From assembly GCF_029504745.1 (NCBI RefSeq), contig NZ_JAQFIQ010000027.1, forward strand, positions 1,418 to 33,417: a stretch of DNA of 32,000 bases, read 5' to 3'. Below, one piece after another: positions 6,459 through 27,007 of this stretch. The notes beneath the pieces were generated by a model. The model saw nothing but the letters and a program-made list of their open reading frames with translations, had not been told where the DNA came from and ran no database searches. Made by a program: the position numbers and the translations under genes. This DNA is from Breznakia sp. PF5-3. Its GTDB lineage: Bacteria; Bacillota_I; Bacilli_A; Erysipelotrichales; Erysipelotrichaceae. Numbering within the stretch: the first letter of the stretch is position 1; every line of letters starts with the position of its first letter.

Positions 6459-9155
6459 ATGGCAAAAAGAATAAATAGAGCAAGTGAAGTTCGCTTACAA
6501 GAACACAAAGAAGCAATTAAAAACAGATTGTTGGAAGCTTCAAAAATGAATAATGATGAAGTGCTTCTTAAATATCATACAACAATGGATGGTTTAAGCG
6601 ACACACAGGTAGAAAAGAATGTGGAAATGTATGGAGAAAACATCATTTCTAAAAACAAAGAAGATTCGGTATTTAAAAGATTATATGATGCATTCATTAA
6701 TCCTTTTACAGTGATTTTGATTGTATTGGTTGGTGTATCTTTTTTAAGTGATGTAGTTTTGGCTGCACCAAAAGAAAGAGATTATACAACAATTATCATT
6801 ATTTCTTGTATGGTATTTATCAGCGGTATTTTAAGGTTTGTGCAAGAATCACGTTCAAATAATGCAGCAGAAAAATTAAATGAAATGATTGAGACAACTA
6901 CAAAAGTCAAACGGTTGAATGAACAAGAAAAAGAGATTCCACTTGATGAAATAGTAGTAGGAGATATTATTTATTTTTCAGCAGGAGATATGATTCCTGC
7001 TGATATGCGTGTACTTAACGCAAAAGATTTATTTGTAAACCAAGGATCATTAACAGGAGAAAGTGAACCTGTAGAAAAGTTTGCAAACAATAAAATAAAA
7101 GGAACACTTACTGAAACAAGCAATTTAATTTTTATGGGAAGTAATGTTGTAAGTGGTTCAGCAATTGGCGTGGTATTATCGGTAGGAGATGATACAACAT
7201 TTGGTTCCATTGTTGGAGATGTAAATCAAAAAGCCCCAGAAACAAGTTTTGAAATAGGAATTAATAAAGTTTCGTGGGTGTTAATTCGTTTCATGTTGGT
7301 TATGGTACCAATTGTTTTTGTGATTAATGGACTTACAAAAAATGATTGGTTACATGCCCTTATGTTTGCTATTTCAATTGCTGTGGGATTAACTCCAGAA
7401 ATGTTGCCAATGATTACAACGACATGTCTTGCAAAAGGTGCAGTAGCAATGTCAAAGAAGAAAGTGATTGTGAAAAACATGAATTCCATTCAAAATTTTG
7501 GTGCAATGGATATATTGTGTACAGATAAAACAGGAACAATAACGGTTGATAAAGTAGTATTGCAACATAATTTAGATGTACATGGAAATGAAGATGATCG
7601 TGTATTACGACATGCATTTTTAAATAGTTATTATCAAACAGGATTGAAAAATTTTATTGATTTAGCAATCATTAATAAAAGTAAGCAAAAGGATATTGAT
7701 GATATTGTAATTGATCGTTTTGAAAAAGTGGATGAAATTCCTTTTGATTTCAATCGTCGTAGAATGAGTGTTGTAGTTAGTGATAAAACCGGAAAAACAC
7801 AATTGATTACCAAAGGTGCAGTTGAAGAAATTCTTAGTGTATGTTCATTTGTTGAATATCATGGAGATGTACAACCAATTGACGAGAATATTAAGGATAA
7901 GGTATTAAAGGTTGTTGAGCAGTTGAATCATGAAGGAATGCGTGTAATTGCAGTTGCACAAAAGAGTAATCCTGCAGTGGTTGGTGCTTTTGAAACAAAA
8001 GATGAAAAGGATATGGTATTAATTGGATATTTGGCATTTTTAGACCCGCCAAAGGAAACAACAAAAGAATCCATTCGAACGCTTGTTGAGTATGGAGTAG
8101 AAGTAAAAGTTCTTACTGGCGATAACGATATGGTTACGAAAAGTATCTGTAGACAAGTAGGTATTGATGTTAAAGAGGTTATTTTGGGTAGTGATTTAGA
8201 TGAAATGAGTGATGAAGAAGTTAAGAAGGAAGTTAAACATGTTGATGTATTCGCAAAATTATCACCATCACAAAAAGCAAGGTTAGTAAAACTAATGAAA
8301 GACAATGGAAATGTTGTTGGCTTTATGGGAGATGGCATCAATGATGCTCCAGCGATGAACCAATCAGATATTGGAATTTCGGTAGATACAGCAGTAGATA
8401 TCGCAAAAGAATCAGCAGATATTATTCTATTAGAAAAAGATTTGATGGTTCTTGAAGAAGGTATTATCGAAGGACGAAAAACATATGGAAATATGATTAA
8501 ATACATTAAGATGACAGCAAGTTCAAACTTTGGAAATATGTTTTCGGTTTTGGTTGCTAGTGCCTTTTTACCATTTTTACCAATGAGTGCAGTACAGTTG
8601 ATTTTCTTAAACTTAATATATGACTTATCTTGTACAGCAATTCCTTGGGATAATGTGGATCTTGAATATCTTAAAAAACCAAGAGATTGGAATGCAGATG
8701 GAATTGCAAGTTTTATGAAGTGGATTGGACCTACTAGTTCCATTTTTGATATTACTACTTACATATTATTATATTTTGTAGTATGTCCTGCTGTAACAGG
8801 AGGATTATTATTCCATCAAATAAGTGATCCAAATATACAACTACAGTATATCGCAGTATTTCAAACAGGATGGTTAATTGAATCTATATGGACACAAACC
8901 TTGGTTATTCATATGATTCGAACACCAAAGATTCCTTTTTTCCAAAGTAGAGCATCACTTATGGTTGGTGTATTTACAAGTATATCAATAGTTGTGGTAA
9001 CGGTTATTCCATATACTATTATAGGAGAAATGTTACATCTTACTCCATTACCATTGCTATATTATGGTTGGTTATTATTAACGATAGTATTATATATGGT
9101 TTTGGTTACGATTGTGAAAAAATACTATATTAAAAAGCACGGTGAACTATTATAA
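6459..9155 (+). CDS. mgtA: magnesium-translocating P-type ATPase (MgtA/MgtB family)
   Basis: About 898 aa with P-type motifs [14 protein letters not shown], MxGDGxNDAPA ([12 protein letters not shown]) and an MgtA-like size and N-terminus. An M-box lies upstream. Start placed at ATG 6459 (9 nt after AGGAG 6445-6449) rather than 6450, which abuts the SD. Confidence 0.85.
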
Positions 9156-23134: not shown

Positions 23135-23163
23135 TGAACCTTTTTGATGTAAAAAGTGTCTAA
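23135..23163 (+). promoter_or_regulatory. ECF-type promoter copy P1 (TGAAC-N18-GTCTAA)
   Basis: TGAAC 23135-23139 and GTCTAA 23158-23163, followed by TTAATGAAGGG. Same motif, spacing and downstream bases as P2 and P3. Lies 54 nt before the sigma-fragment ORF. Confidence 0.6.
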
Positions 23164-23216
23164 TTAATGAAGGGATAATTATTTGGAAGTAAAGTAAATA
23201 GGAAGGAAGTGCAAAT

Positions 23217-23564
23217 ATGGAAATCGGATCAGATGTTATTCTAGCAGTAAAAACAGAAATCGAAAATATGCCAGTAAAATATAAATTTATTGCATTGCTT
23301 TGGTATTTTGAAGAATTTACTGTTGTAGACATTTCAAATATTTTGAATATTCCAGAAGAAATCGTGGAAATTAGAATTGATAAAGTAGAAAGTATGATTC
23401 GTCCTACAATTTTGGTAGAAGGAATGACTTCGGCAAGAAAGTATTCAAAACATTTTCCTGTTGTGGTTTCAAAGGCGTTTGATTTGATTATTAAGAGTTA
23501 TCAGATGCCTGCTGAAACAGAGAGTAGAATATATGTAAACATTTTAAATACATGTCTTTCATAA
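23217..23564 (+). pseudogene. truncated paralog of the sigma fusions: region 4 plus juxtamembrane segment only (115 aa); gene remnant or sigma4-only protein
   Basis: ILAVKTEIENMPVKYKFIALLWYFEEFTVVDISNILNIPEEIVEIRIDKVESMIRP aligns with SF1 ISTIKTEIENMPNTLVQVAQLRYFEDFTTREISEIMDIPEGTVKTRLNKVRKIIQP. Region 2, the TM span and the C-terminal domain are missing, and the GTVK.R helix is degraded to EIVEIR. The ORF is intact with an SD-like GGAAGGAAG. Confidence 0.55.
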
Positions 23565-23592
23565 AATGGAAAAAATATATATAGAAAAAAGT

Positions 23593-23630
23593 AGCAGATA
23601 GAACAACGTGTTTTATTTGCTTTTTATTTT
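23593..23630 (+). terminator. hairpin plus T-run after the sigma-fragment ORF
   Basis: AGCAGATA (23593-23600) pairs with TATTTGCT (23614-23621, one G-U), followed by TTTTTATTTT. Confidence 0.45.
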
Positions 23631-23771
23631 GAAAATGAAAATTATGCTATTTAAGTGAAAAATAGCATAGAATATTACACAATTGTAAATACTTATGGTA
23701 TGCTTTTAGTATGGAATTATTCTAATCAAAATTAGCAAATAGAAGATAAATGTTTATTTTTTTATAAAAAA

Positions 23772-23800
23772 TGAACGAAAAGAATAATGAAATTGTCTAA
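23772..23800 (+). promoter_or_regulatory. ECF-type promoter copy P2 (TGAAC-N18-GTCTAA)
   Basis: AATGAACGAAA...TTGTCTAAAT with TGAAC 23772-23776 and GTCTAA 23795-23800. Lies 75 nt upstream of the SF1 start. Confidence 0.65.
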
Positions 23801-23874
23801 ATTAAGAGGAAATTTGAATTTATTAAGGAAATATGCTAATTTTGTTTTGAATAATAAAAAAAAGGGAGCACATA

Positions 23875-25191
23875 ATGGGTAAAAAAAGTATTGATGTGAA
23901 ATATGTAAAACGATTGAAACAAGGCGATCCTGAAGCTTTTGAAGAAATCTTTCGTTTTTATAAAGACTCTATATATTATTTTTCCTTAACCTTTTTGAAG
24001 AATCGAGCAGATGCGGAAGAAATTGTTCAAGAAACCTTTATAACAGCAATGAAAAATATTGGTTCTTTGGAAAAACCGGCATCATTTCATTCTTGGCTTC
24101 ACAAAATAGCGTATAATAAATCAATGACCCTCTACAAAAAGAATAGCAAGAATGTACAACTAGATAGTGATTTTGATCTAGAAAACATGATTGAAGGAGA
24201 GGAAGGTCCAGCTGGTATGTTATCGCGTAATGAACTAATTTCAACTATAAAAACCGAAATTGAAAATATGCCTAATACATTAGTTCAGGTCGCACAATTG
24301 CGTTATTTTGAGGATTTTACAACCAGAGAGATTTCTGAAATAATGGATATTCCTGAAGGAACGGTTAAAACAAGGTTAAATAAAGTTAGAAAGATAATTC
24401 AACCAAAGCTTGATACAAAAGGGTTTTCTCCTGCAAAATATTTTTCATTTGCGTTTACACCAATAATGTTTAGTGCTTTCCAACAAATTATTGATTCACA
24501 TACTTTGTCAAATGCAGTAGCAAATAAGATGTTTGAAAATATGTCAGTAGCAATTGGTGGAGCGGCAGGATTAGCTGCAAGTGCAGGCGCAGCAGCAGGT
24601 TCTGCAGGTGCAGGTGCATCAAATGCAAGCAATGGATTGCTTACAGCAGCCAAGGTTGCAGTGGCAGCTGTTGCTGGAGGGTCTGGTGTCTATGGAGTTT
24701 ATAATGTAGTGCAATCAACAGGGCCTAATGTAGAGCAAATTTCATATTATAATGAAATAACGAATAAAGATATTGAGGTTGAAGTAATATTAAGTAAAAA
24801 AGAAAATGAAGAAGATATAAAAATATTGTATAATGGTAATGATGTAACATTTACTGCTGAAGACAAGACATTGACATTTGTAGCGAAAGCAAATGGTGAA
24901 TATGTAGTAGAAGTTGGCGGAACACAAAATATATTTACAATTTCCAACATTGATAAACAATCACCGGAGTTGATATCTGTCGAAAAGAGTGGAAATAGTG
25001 TGGTATTTTCATATAATGATGATGTTTCAGGAATTGATTTTGAAAAATCATATATTACTGTAAGTACAGGGGAAAAAATAAGCTTACCAACTAATAACGT
25101 AATCAATGGTGATTATAGTGGTAGTATAAAAGTAAACTTATATGATAAAGCGGGGAATGTTGCAGAATATGAAGTAGATTTAGATGCATAA
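23875..25191 (+). CDS. ECF-type sigma factor fused to a hydrophobic (predicted TM) span and a beta-rich C-terminal domain (SF1, 438 aa)
   Basis: aa 1-178 are sigma-70 region 2 (FYKDSIYYFSLTFLKNRADAEEIVQETF...FHSWLHKIAYN) and region 4 (VAQLRYFEDFTTREISEIMDIPEGTVKTRLNKVRK). aa 225-279 are Ala/Gly-rich and hydrophobic (…GLLTAAKVAVAAVAGGSGVYGVY). aa 280-438 show alternating-strand patterning with a DKQSP junction. SD AGGGAG lies 6 nt before the ATG. Confidence 0.8.
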   Translation: MGKKSIDVKYVKRLKQGDPEAFEEIFRFYKDSIYYFSLTFLKNRADAEEIVQETFITAMKNIGSLEKPASFHSWLHKIAYNKSMTLYKKNSKNVQLDSDFDLENMIEGEEGPAGMLSRNELISTIKTEIENMPNTLVQVAQLRYFEDFTTREISEIMDIPEGTVKTRLNKVRKIIQPKLDTKGFSPAKYFSFAFTPIMFSAFQQIIDSHTLSNAVANKMFENMSVAIGGAAGLAASAGAAAGSAGAGASNASNGLLTAAKVAVAAVAGGSGVYGVYNVVQSTGPNVEQISYYNEITNKDIEVEVILSKKENEEDIKILYNGNDVTFTAEDKTLTFVAKANGEYVVEVGGTQNIFTISNIDKQSPELISVEKSGNSVVFSYNDDVSGIDFEKSYITVSTGEKISLPTNNVINGDYSGSIKVNLYDKAGNVAEYEVDLDA

Positions 25192-25208
25192 TATAAATGG
25201 AGATGAAT

Positions 25209-26549
25209 ATGAAAAAAATAAGAAAAATAAAAATATTCTTTCTAATTGCAATAATGTTATTTGGAACCATTTTGGCGAGTAGCATTTTTCGTGCATCCAT
25301 AAGTGCAGATGATGAAACTAAAGTACATGTAAATGTCTATAGTAATTTATATTATAATAACAATGGTAATTATGAGGATATTCCAGTAGAAGGATTACCT
25401 TATGAAGCAGATGTAGTATTAGAAATACATGCTTCTACAAAGAAAGAATATGAAACGGTAATTGATTATAAAGATAAAGTAGGAACAGTAGTATATTCAT
25501 ATTATGATGGAGTGTTAAAAATTGATGATCGCAATGCTACACAAGAAGAATATGAAGCATTTATTGGCAATGGGATGTCAGATGTACTTTCAAGTAAGGA
25601 AAGAATATATACTTTACATTTGAAATCAACAGGTGAAGATGAAGGGTTGATAACTTGTGGTATTAATTTTCTTTTTAGACATCCAAGTGGAACAATTAAA
25701 TATTTGTATACATTGAAGCATAAAGGTTTATTTCATGGCGAAACATATGCTGTAAATTTTTATGATTATGATGGTTCTGTAATAAAAAGTGAACGTGTAA
25801 AACCAGGAACAGCTGTAGAAGTTCCAACGGTTAAAAGAGAAGGATATAATTTTCTTGGTTTCAATACGCTTGAAAATGGAACAGGTGAATATTATAAAGG
25901 TCAAGAAATAGTTGAAGATATGTCATTTTATGCTATTTATGAAAAAAAGATATATCGGGTAAATTATTATGTGGATGATGAATTATATACAACACGAGAA
26001 GTTGCTCATGGTGAAGATGCAGAAAATATTAAATTAAAAGACACAGCGAGTCGTAAATTTGTTGGATGGGACAAGAGCTTAAATAATGTTACTAGTGATT
26101 ATGATGTACATGCAGTATTTAAAACAATTAAACCTATACCAAGTCCGCCAAAAGATGCAGAAAAACCAAGTACAGATACTTCTATAAAAGAAAAGGAAGT
26201 TATTGCGAAGCCAAGTGAGGCAGTAACCCCAAAAGCAGAAATAGAACAAAAAGAACCATCAAAAAAAGATGAAAAAAAGGCAGCGAAAGTAAAAGCTAAA
26301 ATTAAAAAAACAAGTTCTATTGAAGGAAATGATACATTAGAAGCAGATAATAAAGCAGCTATAATAAATAATGATGATAATGCAGAGGTGATTGATTCAG
26401 AAGAGAAAGTATCAGCTTCTGTGGCAAGCAAAGAGGTGGGTTCATCAAAGGATGACACATTAATGAAACTATTGCCGTTTGCTGTTTCAACATTAAGCAT
26501 GTTGGTATTGTTATTATTGACGGTAAAAAGTAAGATTTTTAAAAGATAA
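25209..26549 (+). CDS. secreted/surface protein with two Listeria-Bacteroides (Flg_new-type) repeats, a K/E/P-rich stalk and a C-terminal hydrophobic anchor
   Basis: Signal peptide MKKIRKIKIFFLIAIMLFGTILASSIFRASISA. Repeat 1 is YAVNFYDYDGSVIKSERVKPGTAVEVPTVKREGYNFLGFN...SFYAIYEKK and repeat 2 is YRVNYYVDDELYTTREVAHGEDA...RKFVGWDKSLNNVTSDYDVHAVFK. The tail is LLPFAVSTLSMLVLLLLTVKSKIFKR, with no LPXTG. ATG 25209 lies 6 nt after GGAG and 17 nt after the SF1 stop. Confidence 0.7.
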   Translation: MKKIRKIKIFFLIAIMLFGTILASSIFRASISADDETKVHVNVYSNLYYNNNGNYEDIPVEGLPYEADVVLEIHASTKKEYETVIDYKDKVGTVVYSYYDGVLKIDDRNATQEEYEAFIGNGMSDVLSSKERIYTLHLKSTGEDEGLITCGINFLFRHPSGTIKYLYTLKHKGLFHGETYAVNFYDYDGSVIKSERVKPGTAVEVPTVKREGYNFLGFNTLENGTGEYYKGQEIVEDMSFYAIYEKKIYRVNYYVDDELYTTREVAHGEDAENIKLKDTASRKFVGWDKSLNNVTSDYDVHAVFKTIKPIPSPPKDAEKPSTDTSIKEKEVIAKPSEAVTPKAEIEQKEPSKKDEKKAAKVKAKIKKTSSIEGNDTLEADNKAAIINNDDNAEVIDSEEKVSASVASKEVGSSKDDTLMKLLPFAVSTLSMLVLLLLTVKSKIFKR

Positions 26550-26571
26550 GTAAAAAAACTTATCTTTTTTT
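26544..26571 (+). terminator. intrinsic terminator overlapping the surface-protein stop codon
   Basis: AGATAAGT (26544-26551) pairs with ACTTATCT (26558-26565), followed by TTTTTT. Confidence 0.7.
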
Positions 26572-26580
26572 AAAAATAAA

Positions 26581-26609
26581 TGAACGAAATGCTATTTTTA
26601 CTTGTCTAA
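26581..26609 (+). promoter_or_regulatory. ECF-type promoter copy P3 (TGAAC-N18-GTCTAA)
   Basis: AATGAACGAAA...TTGTCTAAAT with TGAAC 26581-26585 and GTCTAA 26604-26609. Lies about 400 nt upstream of the SF2 start. Confidence 0.65.
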
Positions 26610-26901
26610 ATAATGAGGTGGATAGAGAAGCTAGATGTATAAGAAACTTGATGCAATGAAAGAAGTAATAAATTTATGACCTAATATATTATGACCAAAT
26701 ATACTATACAACTTCTGGAGGGGCGTTATATATCGTAGATAAATAACTTGTATTATAATAATCAAAATTTTTAGACATTACACTCACATAATTGTTCATC
26801 GGAGGGGGATGAACCTAAGCGTATGGGAAGATAGGATTTTAGATAATAATTGAAATCTTATACATCTACAAGCATTGTTTAAGGCAGATTATTGAATTGA
26901 A

Positions 26902-26939
26902 AAGGAAAAGGTTCGTTTAACGAACTTTTTCCTTTTTAT
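26902..26939 (+). terminator. strong intrinsic terminator inside the P3-to-SF2 leader
   Basis: GGAAAAGGTTCG (26905-26916) pairs with CGAACTTTTTCC (26922-26933, one G-U). Flanking A/T pairs extend the stem, followed by TTTTT. Confidence 0.75.
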
Positions 26940-26953
26940 GCGAGGTGTTTTAA

Positions 26954-26982
26954 TTGTATTTTTATAGCGAGTGTGGTATTAC
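26954..26982 (+). promoter_or_regulatory. possible sigma-A-type promoter directly upstream of SF2
   Basis: TTGTAT (26954-26959), 17 nt, TGgTATTAC (26974-26982). Both hexamers are imperfect. Confidence 0.3.
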
Positions 26983-27007
26983 TATTGTGGGGAAAGCAAG
27001 GAGTAGT

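Follow-up and report, generated by a model that had tools for sequence, protein, structure and literature searches.

The stretch analysed here, 32,000 nucleotides (nt) of a Breznakia sp. PF5-3 contig and called the window below, carries a locus with two genes for sigma factors of the extracytoplasmic function (ECF) class, each fused to a putative membrane segment and an extracellular part, and three copies of the motif TGAAC-N18-GTCTAA, designated P1, P2 and P3 (Table 1). P1 is followed after 53 nt by an open reading frame (ORF) for a protein of 115 amino acids (aa), P2 after 74 nt by the gene of sigma fusion 1 and then by a gene for a 450-aa surface protein, and P3 after 398 nt by the likely start of sigma fusion 2. 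In our assessment, the three motifs are likely to be ECF (group 4) promoters that are recognized by the ECF domain of the membrane-anchored sigma fusion or fusions of the locus.

Table 1. Features of the locus in the window, followed by the motif variants found at five distantly related loci (positions are those of the window or of the named locus)
Locus	Feature	Position	Strand	Remarks
Window	P1	23135..23163	+	ECF-type promoter, TGAACC-TTTT...TGTCTAAT subtype; predicted start G 23169
Window	Mini-sigma-4 gene, 115 aa	23217..23564	+	Region 4 and the helices preceding the membrane segment; no region 2
Window	Hairpin and T-run	23593..23631	+	Terminator-like, 3' of the mini-sigma-4 gene; terminator scan
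Window	P2	23772..23800	+	ECF-type promoter, TGAACG-A...TTGTCTAAAT subtype; predicted start G 23806
Window	TATGCTAATTTT	23832..23843	+	Possible extended -10 of a basal housekeeping-sigma promoter, sigma fusion 1
Window	Sigma fusion 1, 438 aa	23875..25191	+	ECF regions 2 and 4, linker helices, Gly/Ala-rich putative membrane segment, two immunoglobulin (Ig)-like beta-sandwich domains
Window	Surface protein, 450 aa	25197..26549	+	Signal peptide, Listeria-Bacteroides repeat (Pfam Flg_new), C-terminal membrane anchor
Window	Hairpin AAGATAAG/CTTATCTT and T-run	26543..26571	+	Terminator-like end of the P2 operon; read from the sequence
Window	P3	26581..26609	+	ECF-type promoter, GTGAACGAAAT...GTCTAAA subtype; predicted start G 26615
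Window	Candidate P3 transcript, ~320 nt	26615..26940	+	No conserved reading frame
Window	Conserved block CTGGAGGGGCGTTAT	26715-26729	+	Within the candidate P3 RNA
Window	Near-copy TGAAC-N17-GTCTAA	26772-26797	-	Probably chance
Window	Intrinsic terminator	26898..26938	+	Strong 19-bp stem, U-rich 3' arm, between P3 and sigma fusion 2; RNA folding
Window	TGTGGTATTACT	26972..26983	+	Possible extended -10 of a basal promoter, sigma fusion 2; compare TGTGGTAATTT in L085
Window	Sigma fusion 2, 425 aa	27008..28285	+	Start ATG 27008; the mechanical ORF starts at TTG 26954
L086	GAACCAAT..CTCTA	6938 and 9409		
L088	TGAAC..GCGTC(A/T)TAC	3294 and 8557		
L090	T(A/T)AAAC..CCGTC(C/T)TA	5106 and 6567		
L097	ATGAAC..TGTC	258 and 2829		
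L098	TCGAACGAAA..GGTCTAAT	2903 and 5413		

Sigma fusions and promoter motifs in the window

Both fusions contain sigma regions 2 and 4 above threshold and no region 3, as is expected of ECF sigma factors: Pfam Sigma70_r2 and Sigma70_r4_2 match above their cut-offs, and TIGR02937 reaches 91 bits for sigma fusion 1 and 102 bits for sigma fusion 2, at a cut-off of 43. That the adjacent proteins are ECF sigmas supports the reading of the motifs as ECF promoters. The best NCBIfam model for the sigma domains is SigW, and the nearest solved structure to sigma fusion 1 is that of Bacillus subtilis SigW/RsiW (32% identity); neither fusion scores as a SigW equivalog (119.6 and 115.6 bits vs. 209 for NF007223, 106.7 and 102.8 bits vs. 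243 for TIGR02948). The start codon of sigma fusion 2 was chosen by aligning its N-terminus with those of homologues. The recognition helices of the two fusions are nearly identical, and therefore both probably read the same sites.

The AlphaFold2 model of sigma fusion 1, with a mean predicted local distance difference test score (pLDDT) of 71.5, comprises two helical domains, a disordered linker and two confident beta-sandwiches. Pfam detected neither a FecR-like domain nor a zinc-binding anti-sigma domain in the extension of the fusions, and sigma fusion 1 has no cysteines. In the family alignment, the position of the putative membrane segment is clearly hydrophobic in homologues, from which we infer a topology with the sigma part inside and the Ig-like part outside. 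The hydrophobic segments of the surface protein are residues 13-31 and 425-443, and a homologous partner gene lies directly 3' of the sigma fusion in most of the related loci; the pair formed by sigma fusion 1 and the surface protein is predicted to be co-transcribed.

The exact search of the 32-kb window returned three matches to the motif, all on the + strand, where a mean of 0.02 is expected by chance and none of 100 dinucleotide-preserving shuffles reached three; the window has a G+C content of 32%. The first-pass annotation, which had reported three copies with an identical 18-nt gap, is thus borne out. Its by-eye statement that no other GTCTAA is paired with TGAAC at the matching distance also agrees with an exhaustive count, in which only three of the 11 occurrences of GTCTAA (six on the + strand, five on the - strand) have TGAAC at N18, and the strings that it had given as shared by P2 and P3, AATGAACGAAA and TTGTCTAAAT, are present, as is the similarity of the bases 3' of the -10 among P1, P2 and P3. 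There is no surplus of weaker copies in the window: with up to two mismatches, nine are observed vs. 10.7 expected, i.e., the chance level.

Within the P3 region, in the opposite orientation, the motif has a near-copy whose gap is 17 nt and which overlaps a 31-aa minus-strand ORF. No counterpart of it was found in the orthologous loci, and it is probably due to chance.

Conservation of the motif in related and unrelated loci

In the protein collection, 19 full-length relatives of the fusions (clusters) were found, all from Breznakia-like sources, and their contigs were fetched. Five of the loci (L081, L083, L085, L094 and L096) are syntenic with the window, so that six loci with a total length of 91.8 kb could be compared. 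Their common gene order is a radical-SAM gene, aroD, the gene of the small protein, the sigma fusion, the surface protein and, optionally, a second fusion (the orthologue of sigma fusion 2 is P0011 in L085). The shared order ends with a convergent rarA in L085, L094 and L096 and with a further surface-protein gene in L083, and the contig of L081 stops just past the terminator of the P3 region, before the next gene.

Across the six syntenic loci, TGAAC-N18-GTCT(A/T)A occurs at 17 sites, all of them intergenic and on the gene strand, compared to an expectation of 0.125 sites and a maximum of two in first-order Markov shuffles. We distinguish the following three types of sites: (i) a P1 type (TGAACCTTTT..TGTCTwAT), which precedes the small gene, of 111-117 aa, at the same position in all six loci; (ii) a P2 type (TGAACGA..TTGTCTAAAT), which precedes the sigma gene in four of the six, namely the window, L081, L085 and L094; and (iii) a P3 type (GTGAACGAAAT..GTCTAAA), which is found 3' of the surface-protein gene in each of the six, even in loci that show no second sigma fusion downstream. 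L083 has an additional P3-type site before its gene for a 724-aa surface protein. The two boxes are kept, the 12 central positions of the spacer carry only 0.1-0.9 bits, and the proteins are 55-61% identical between lineages; from this we infer that the boxes are under selection and are not the product of a recent duplication.

More distant fusions (31-44% identity) have their own variants of AAC-N18-GTC, with two copies per locus (Table 1), one before the sigma gene and the other before the gene of the neighbouring surface protein. The surface proteins have 1682 to 4841 aa in four of the five distant loci and 408 aa in L097, and the output of the regulon there seems to consist of adhesin-like proteins. 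The presence of a matching pair of variants, particular to each of these loci, indicates that promoter and sigma factor vary together. There was no clear match to a motif variant in L001 and L092; the former was the only full-length relative retrieved by a scan of genome contigs with the family alignment, the results of which were dominated by generic ECF sigmas.

In L092, whose fusion (P0019, 29% identity) is the most divergent, a repeated element particular to the locus ends in CGTCTATTAT. This element, AAATCCGTTTTTTTA-N9/10-AATCGTCTATTAT, lies at about 6930-6975 and 8340-8375, before the sigma gene and before an adjacent 1191-aa gene, and a TGAAC-N18-GACTAA site is present as well.

The other 79 loci (848 kb), whose ECF sigma genes are unrelated and come from many phyla, served as the control set. 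The exact window motif has six matches in this set, all on the gene strand and 48-137 nt 5' of the sigma gene, in Pelotomaculum, two Clostridia, a Bacillus and the cyanobacterium Xenococcus. Of the 79 control sigma genes, 16 have the shorter pattern GAAC-N18-GTC in the 300 nt 5' of them, at approximately eightfold its density elsewhere in the same loci. Judging by these matches before unrelated ECF genes, the motif serves a broad ECF clade as a generic autoregulatory promoter. The individual control sites with the exact motif are at 5895 in L021, 5864 in L029, 5871 in L042, 5953 in L047, and 5872 and 5931 in L056, the last two being identical tandem copies 59 nt apart.

The geometry of the sites could be compared to that of a solved ECF open complex. 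In the scaffold of the Mycobacterium tuberculosis sigma-H open complex, GGAACA spans positions -34 to -29 and GTT positions -11 to -9, with 18 nt from C to G, and ECF sigmas are described as requiring near-consensus boxes and a rigid spacer (PMC6411747). The distance from the C of AAC to the G of GTC is likewise 18 nt at every one of our 17 sites. TGAAC is invariant in the three window sites and the 14 orthologous ones, and AAC is retained in the variants of the distant loci; GTCT(A/T)A is present at 17 of 17 sites, with CGTC, GTC or CTC in the distant loci. The sites are located upstream of, and co-oriented with, ECF sigma and regulon genes, with a terminator lying between P3 and sigma fusion 2. 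The sigma-H promoter differs in organism and ECF group and has T as the third base of the -10, where the window sites have C; transferring the sigma-H register predicts the transcription starts given in Table 1. Each of these is a G within a conserved (A)TGAAG-like stretch 3' of the -10.

The 115-aa protein behind P1 and the candidate RNA behind P3

The first-pass annotation treated the three units as paralogous, each with one promoter. For the first unit, the paralogy holds for region 4 and the linker: the 115-aa protein matches residues 119-223 of sigma fusion 1 (36% identity, E value 3e-21, BLASTP). It is, however, not a sigma factor, having no region 2 and an acidic recognition helix (EEIVEIRIDKVE, vs. 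EGTVKTRLNKVR in the sigma fusion), which makes DNA binding unlikely. The protein is 60-76% identical across the syntenic loci, i.e., more conserved than the fusion. It has no Pfam family and only partial matches to NCBIfam sigma models, and its own family comprises just nine clusters among 5.8 billion proteins, all of them unannotated. The 115-aa protein may be a sigma mimic or a feedback modulator, perhaps in the manner of a decoy that occupies the polymerase flap or a binder of the linker helices. L099, which comes from the same sample as L085, encodes a further sigma-4-only protein (59% identity) at 7261-7611, outside the syntenic context; this copy adjoins a Mutator-type transposase and a peptidase C1/dockerin protein.

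A sigma-like mimic, PhyR, modulates the sigma pathway of the general stress response (ECF15) in Alphaproteobacteria. The 115-aa protein, with its putative modulator role, is comparable to PhyR (mentioned in PMC7826278) in resembling part of an ECF sigma while probably acting as a modulator instead. PhyR, however, has a receiver domain and both sigma-like regions, whereas the 115-aa protein consists of region 4 and linker helices only and is a close paralogue of the sigma encoded in the locus.

As for one promoter per unit, this describes P2, which stands directly before sigma fusion 1, but not P3, which is separated from sigma fusion 2 by 398 nt and a strong terminator. A block (C/T)TGGAGGGGCG(G/T)TAT, or GAGGGG(C/T)G(G/T)TAT, is located 95-121 nt after GTCTAA behind every P3-type site, in six of six loci, and was not found elsewhere in these loci. 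Terminators formed by a hairpin and a run of U close the P3 region in L081, L083, L085, L094 and L096 as well. In L094 and L096, P3, block and terminator are kept and are followed by the convergent rarA, with no second fusion; in L081, all three are present and the contig ends right after them. No frame or peptide of a small ORF behind P3 is shared among the six loci. Since P3, block and terminator persist where no sigma gene follows, and since no ORF is shared, the simplest reading is that P3 probably makes a sigma-dependent non-coding RNA of roughly 320 nt.

The searches for relatives of this RNA were negative. Rfam gave only sub-threshold matches on the terminator hairpin (the best being ohsC, 32.6 bits vs. 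50) and nothing on the conserved block; a metagenome scan for promoter and block together returned no matches; and the window contains no convincing base-pairing target of the G-rich block. The folds of the individual RNAs differ among loci, with z-scores from -1.1 to -4.1.

P3 could instead be the working promoter of sigma fusion 2, and the 400 nt between them a regulated leader whose terminator is overridden on induction. We regard this reading as rather unlikely. In its favour, the interval between P3 and sigma fusion 2 contains no further gene, L085 has P3, block, hairpin and sigma fusion 2 in the same order, and leaders with conditional terminators are common in Firmicutes. However, the persistence of P3, block and terminator in front of rarA in L094 and L096, and their presence in L081, speak against a leader, as do the 19-bp stem of the hairpin, the lack of a match to any known leader or riboswitch family and the separate conserved -10-like element that lies 3' of the terminator.

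This element belongs to a pattern, TRTGnTAATTT(TA), that recurs in the six syntenic loci: all sigma fusion genes examined have it about 25-35 nt 5' of their start codons. The pattern resembles an extended -10 that would serve basal expression, in which case each sigma gene would have a dual promoter.

The candidate P3 RNA invites comparison to MicA, RybB and MicL, the sigma-E-dependent small RNAs of enterobacteria, whose ECF promoters lie next to or within the regulon. The likeness is that of a short non-coding RNA with an ECF promoter and an intrinsic terminator; the P3 RNA differs in having neither sequence or Rfam similarity nor a target found in the window.

Probable recognition by the sigma fusions, the proposed circuit and related systems

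The first-pass annotation had tied the motifs, as ECF-type promoters, to the sigma genes of the locus, and four lines of evidence strongly support this: the conservation of position, the co-varying variants, the occurrence before unrelated ECF genes and the geometry shared with sigma-H. Several observations weigh on the other side. A broad ECF clade shares the motif, such that another ECF sigma of the genome might read the sites. In L083 and L096, which have the small gene directly 5' of the sigma gene, P2 is either degenerate or lost, and no ECF motif was found upstream of the sigma-4-only gene of L099. The membrane segments of the window fusions are weakly hydrophobic (Kyte-Doolittle 1.3-1.5), with a pLDDT of about 26. 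The consensus fold of the P3 RNA is unsupported, as RNAalifold gives no more than a hairpin, rich in G-U, around the block, and this lacks useful covariation.

The first of these points leads to an alternative in which the motifs are genuine ECF promoters read by an ECF sigma encoded elsewhere in the genome. The exact motif does precede unrelated ECF genes in Pelotomaculum, Clostridium, Bacillus and a cyanobacterium; however, in the distant loci the variants change with the adjacent fusion, in two matching copies each, and in every locus the sites lie in close proximity to the fusion genes. We consider this alternative improbable. That the motifs are functionless leftovers of the duplication of a unit, housekeeping-sigma promoters or sites of another regulator is highly improbable: the units are paralogous and the sequence after GTC is AT-rich, with -10-like strings such as AATAAT, but TGAAC and GTCT are kept at orthologous positions despite diverged spacers and flanks, in lineages with only 55-60% protein identity, TGAAC fits TTGACA poorly, the halves of the motif form neither a direct nor an inverted repeat, and the motif recurs before unrelated ECF genes. 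Assigning the P1 subtype and the P2/P3 subtype to different fusions was also considered, and was rejected because single-fusion loci carry both subtypes. The single-fusion relatives keep P1-, P2- and P3-type sites, and the cross-activation among three units that had been predicted is thus not required.

If the sites are read by the sigma fusions of the locus, the following mechanism can be proposed. Sigma region 4 would read TGAAC at about -34 to -30, and region 2 would read GTC at -11 to -9 across the rigid 18-nt gap, with a predicted transcription start 11 nt past the G of GTC, at a conserved G. Until a signal is sensed by the extracellular Ig-like domains, possibly together with the partner surface protein, the sigma domain is probably kept inactive at the membrane, from which regulated proteolysis would then free it. 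Once freed, it would transcribe from P2, amplifying itself, and from P1 and P3. P2 would provide positive autoregulation of sigma fusion 1 and the co-transcribed surface protein; P1 would drive the sigma-4-only paralogue, a probable feedback modulator without DNA binding; and P3 would drive the ~320-nt non-coding RNA, mostly stopped at the strong terminator. Sigma fusion 2 would depend either on read-through from P3 or on a promoter of its own, and both fusions probably also have a weak housekeeping promoter just 5' of the gene.

The promoters of B. subtilis sigma-W, sigma-M and sigma-X and of Escherichia coli sigma-E (rpoE) are similar in having a -35 with AAC, a -10 with GTC or CGT and a rigid spacer, and in lying just upstream of the sigma gene, which results in positive autoregulation. 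Compared to sigma-W-type promoters, the -35 is TGAAC rather than TGAAAC, and the gap in the sigma-W consensus is one base shorter than the gap of the window sites. In sigM and sigX, a housekeeping promoter is combined with an ECF promoter, as we propose for the fusions. Sigma-W-type systems differ, however, from the present locus, which has no separate anti-sigma gene, the sigma being fused to its own membrane and extracellular part.

Membrane-fused sigma factors are known: activation by regulated proteolysis was shown for IutY of Pseudomonas putida (ECF243) and was proposed for ECF52, to which SCO4117 of Streptomyces coelicolor belongs (PMC8999054). The fusions of the window share with these hybrids the arrangement of an ECF sigma, a membrane segment and an extracytoplasmic domain (both putative in our case) in a single polypeptide. 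They differ from them in the absence of a FecR-like domain or a zinc-binding anti-sigma motif, in an outer part that consists of two Ig-like domains, and in the host, an insect-gut member of the Erysipelotrichaceae.

In Breznakia sp. OttesenSCG-928-G09, a partial NCBI protein is 100% identical to a window protein, and the small protein and sigma fusion 1 (P0072 and P0001) are annotated as partial, on two contigs (80,650 and 7,649 nt).

The autoregulated ECF promoter is, very probably, an ordinary element of a known kind, a self-activating switch, and was to be expected at such a locus; the small protein and the RNA attached to it are the parts of greater interest. For neither of them, the sigma-4-only paralogue and the candidate sigma-dependent small RNA, has a counterpart been described in Firmicutes, as far as checked. 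The pattern TGAAC-N18-GTCT(A/T)A can be used in searches for the regulon of these membrane-anchored sigma factors, a small and unstudied family of Breznakia and its relatives, and in related genomes it leads to very large surface proteins. We tentatively suggest a circuit of a kind not yet described for ECF sigmas, in which one membrane-anchored sigma with an Ig-like outer domain would act through near-identical promoters on three outputs, namely the sigma factor itself with its surface protein, a DNA-blind sigma-4 mimic providing feedback and a G-rich small RNA. If correct, this circuit would represent cell-surface signalling for adhesion in insect-gut Erysipelotrichaceae, in whose relatives the motif would also control giant adhesin-like proteins.

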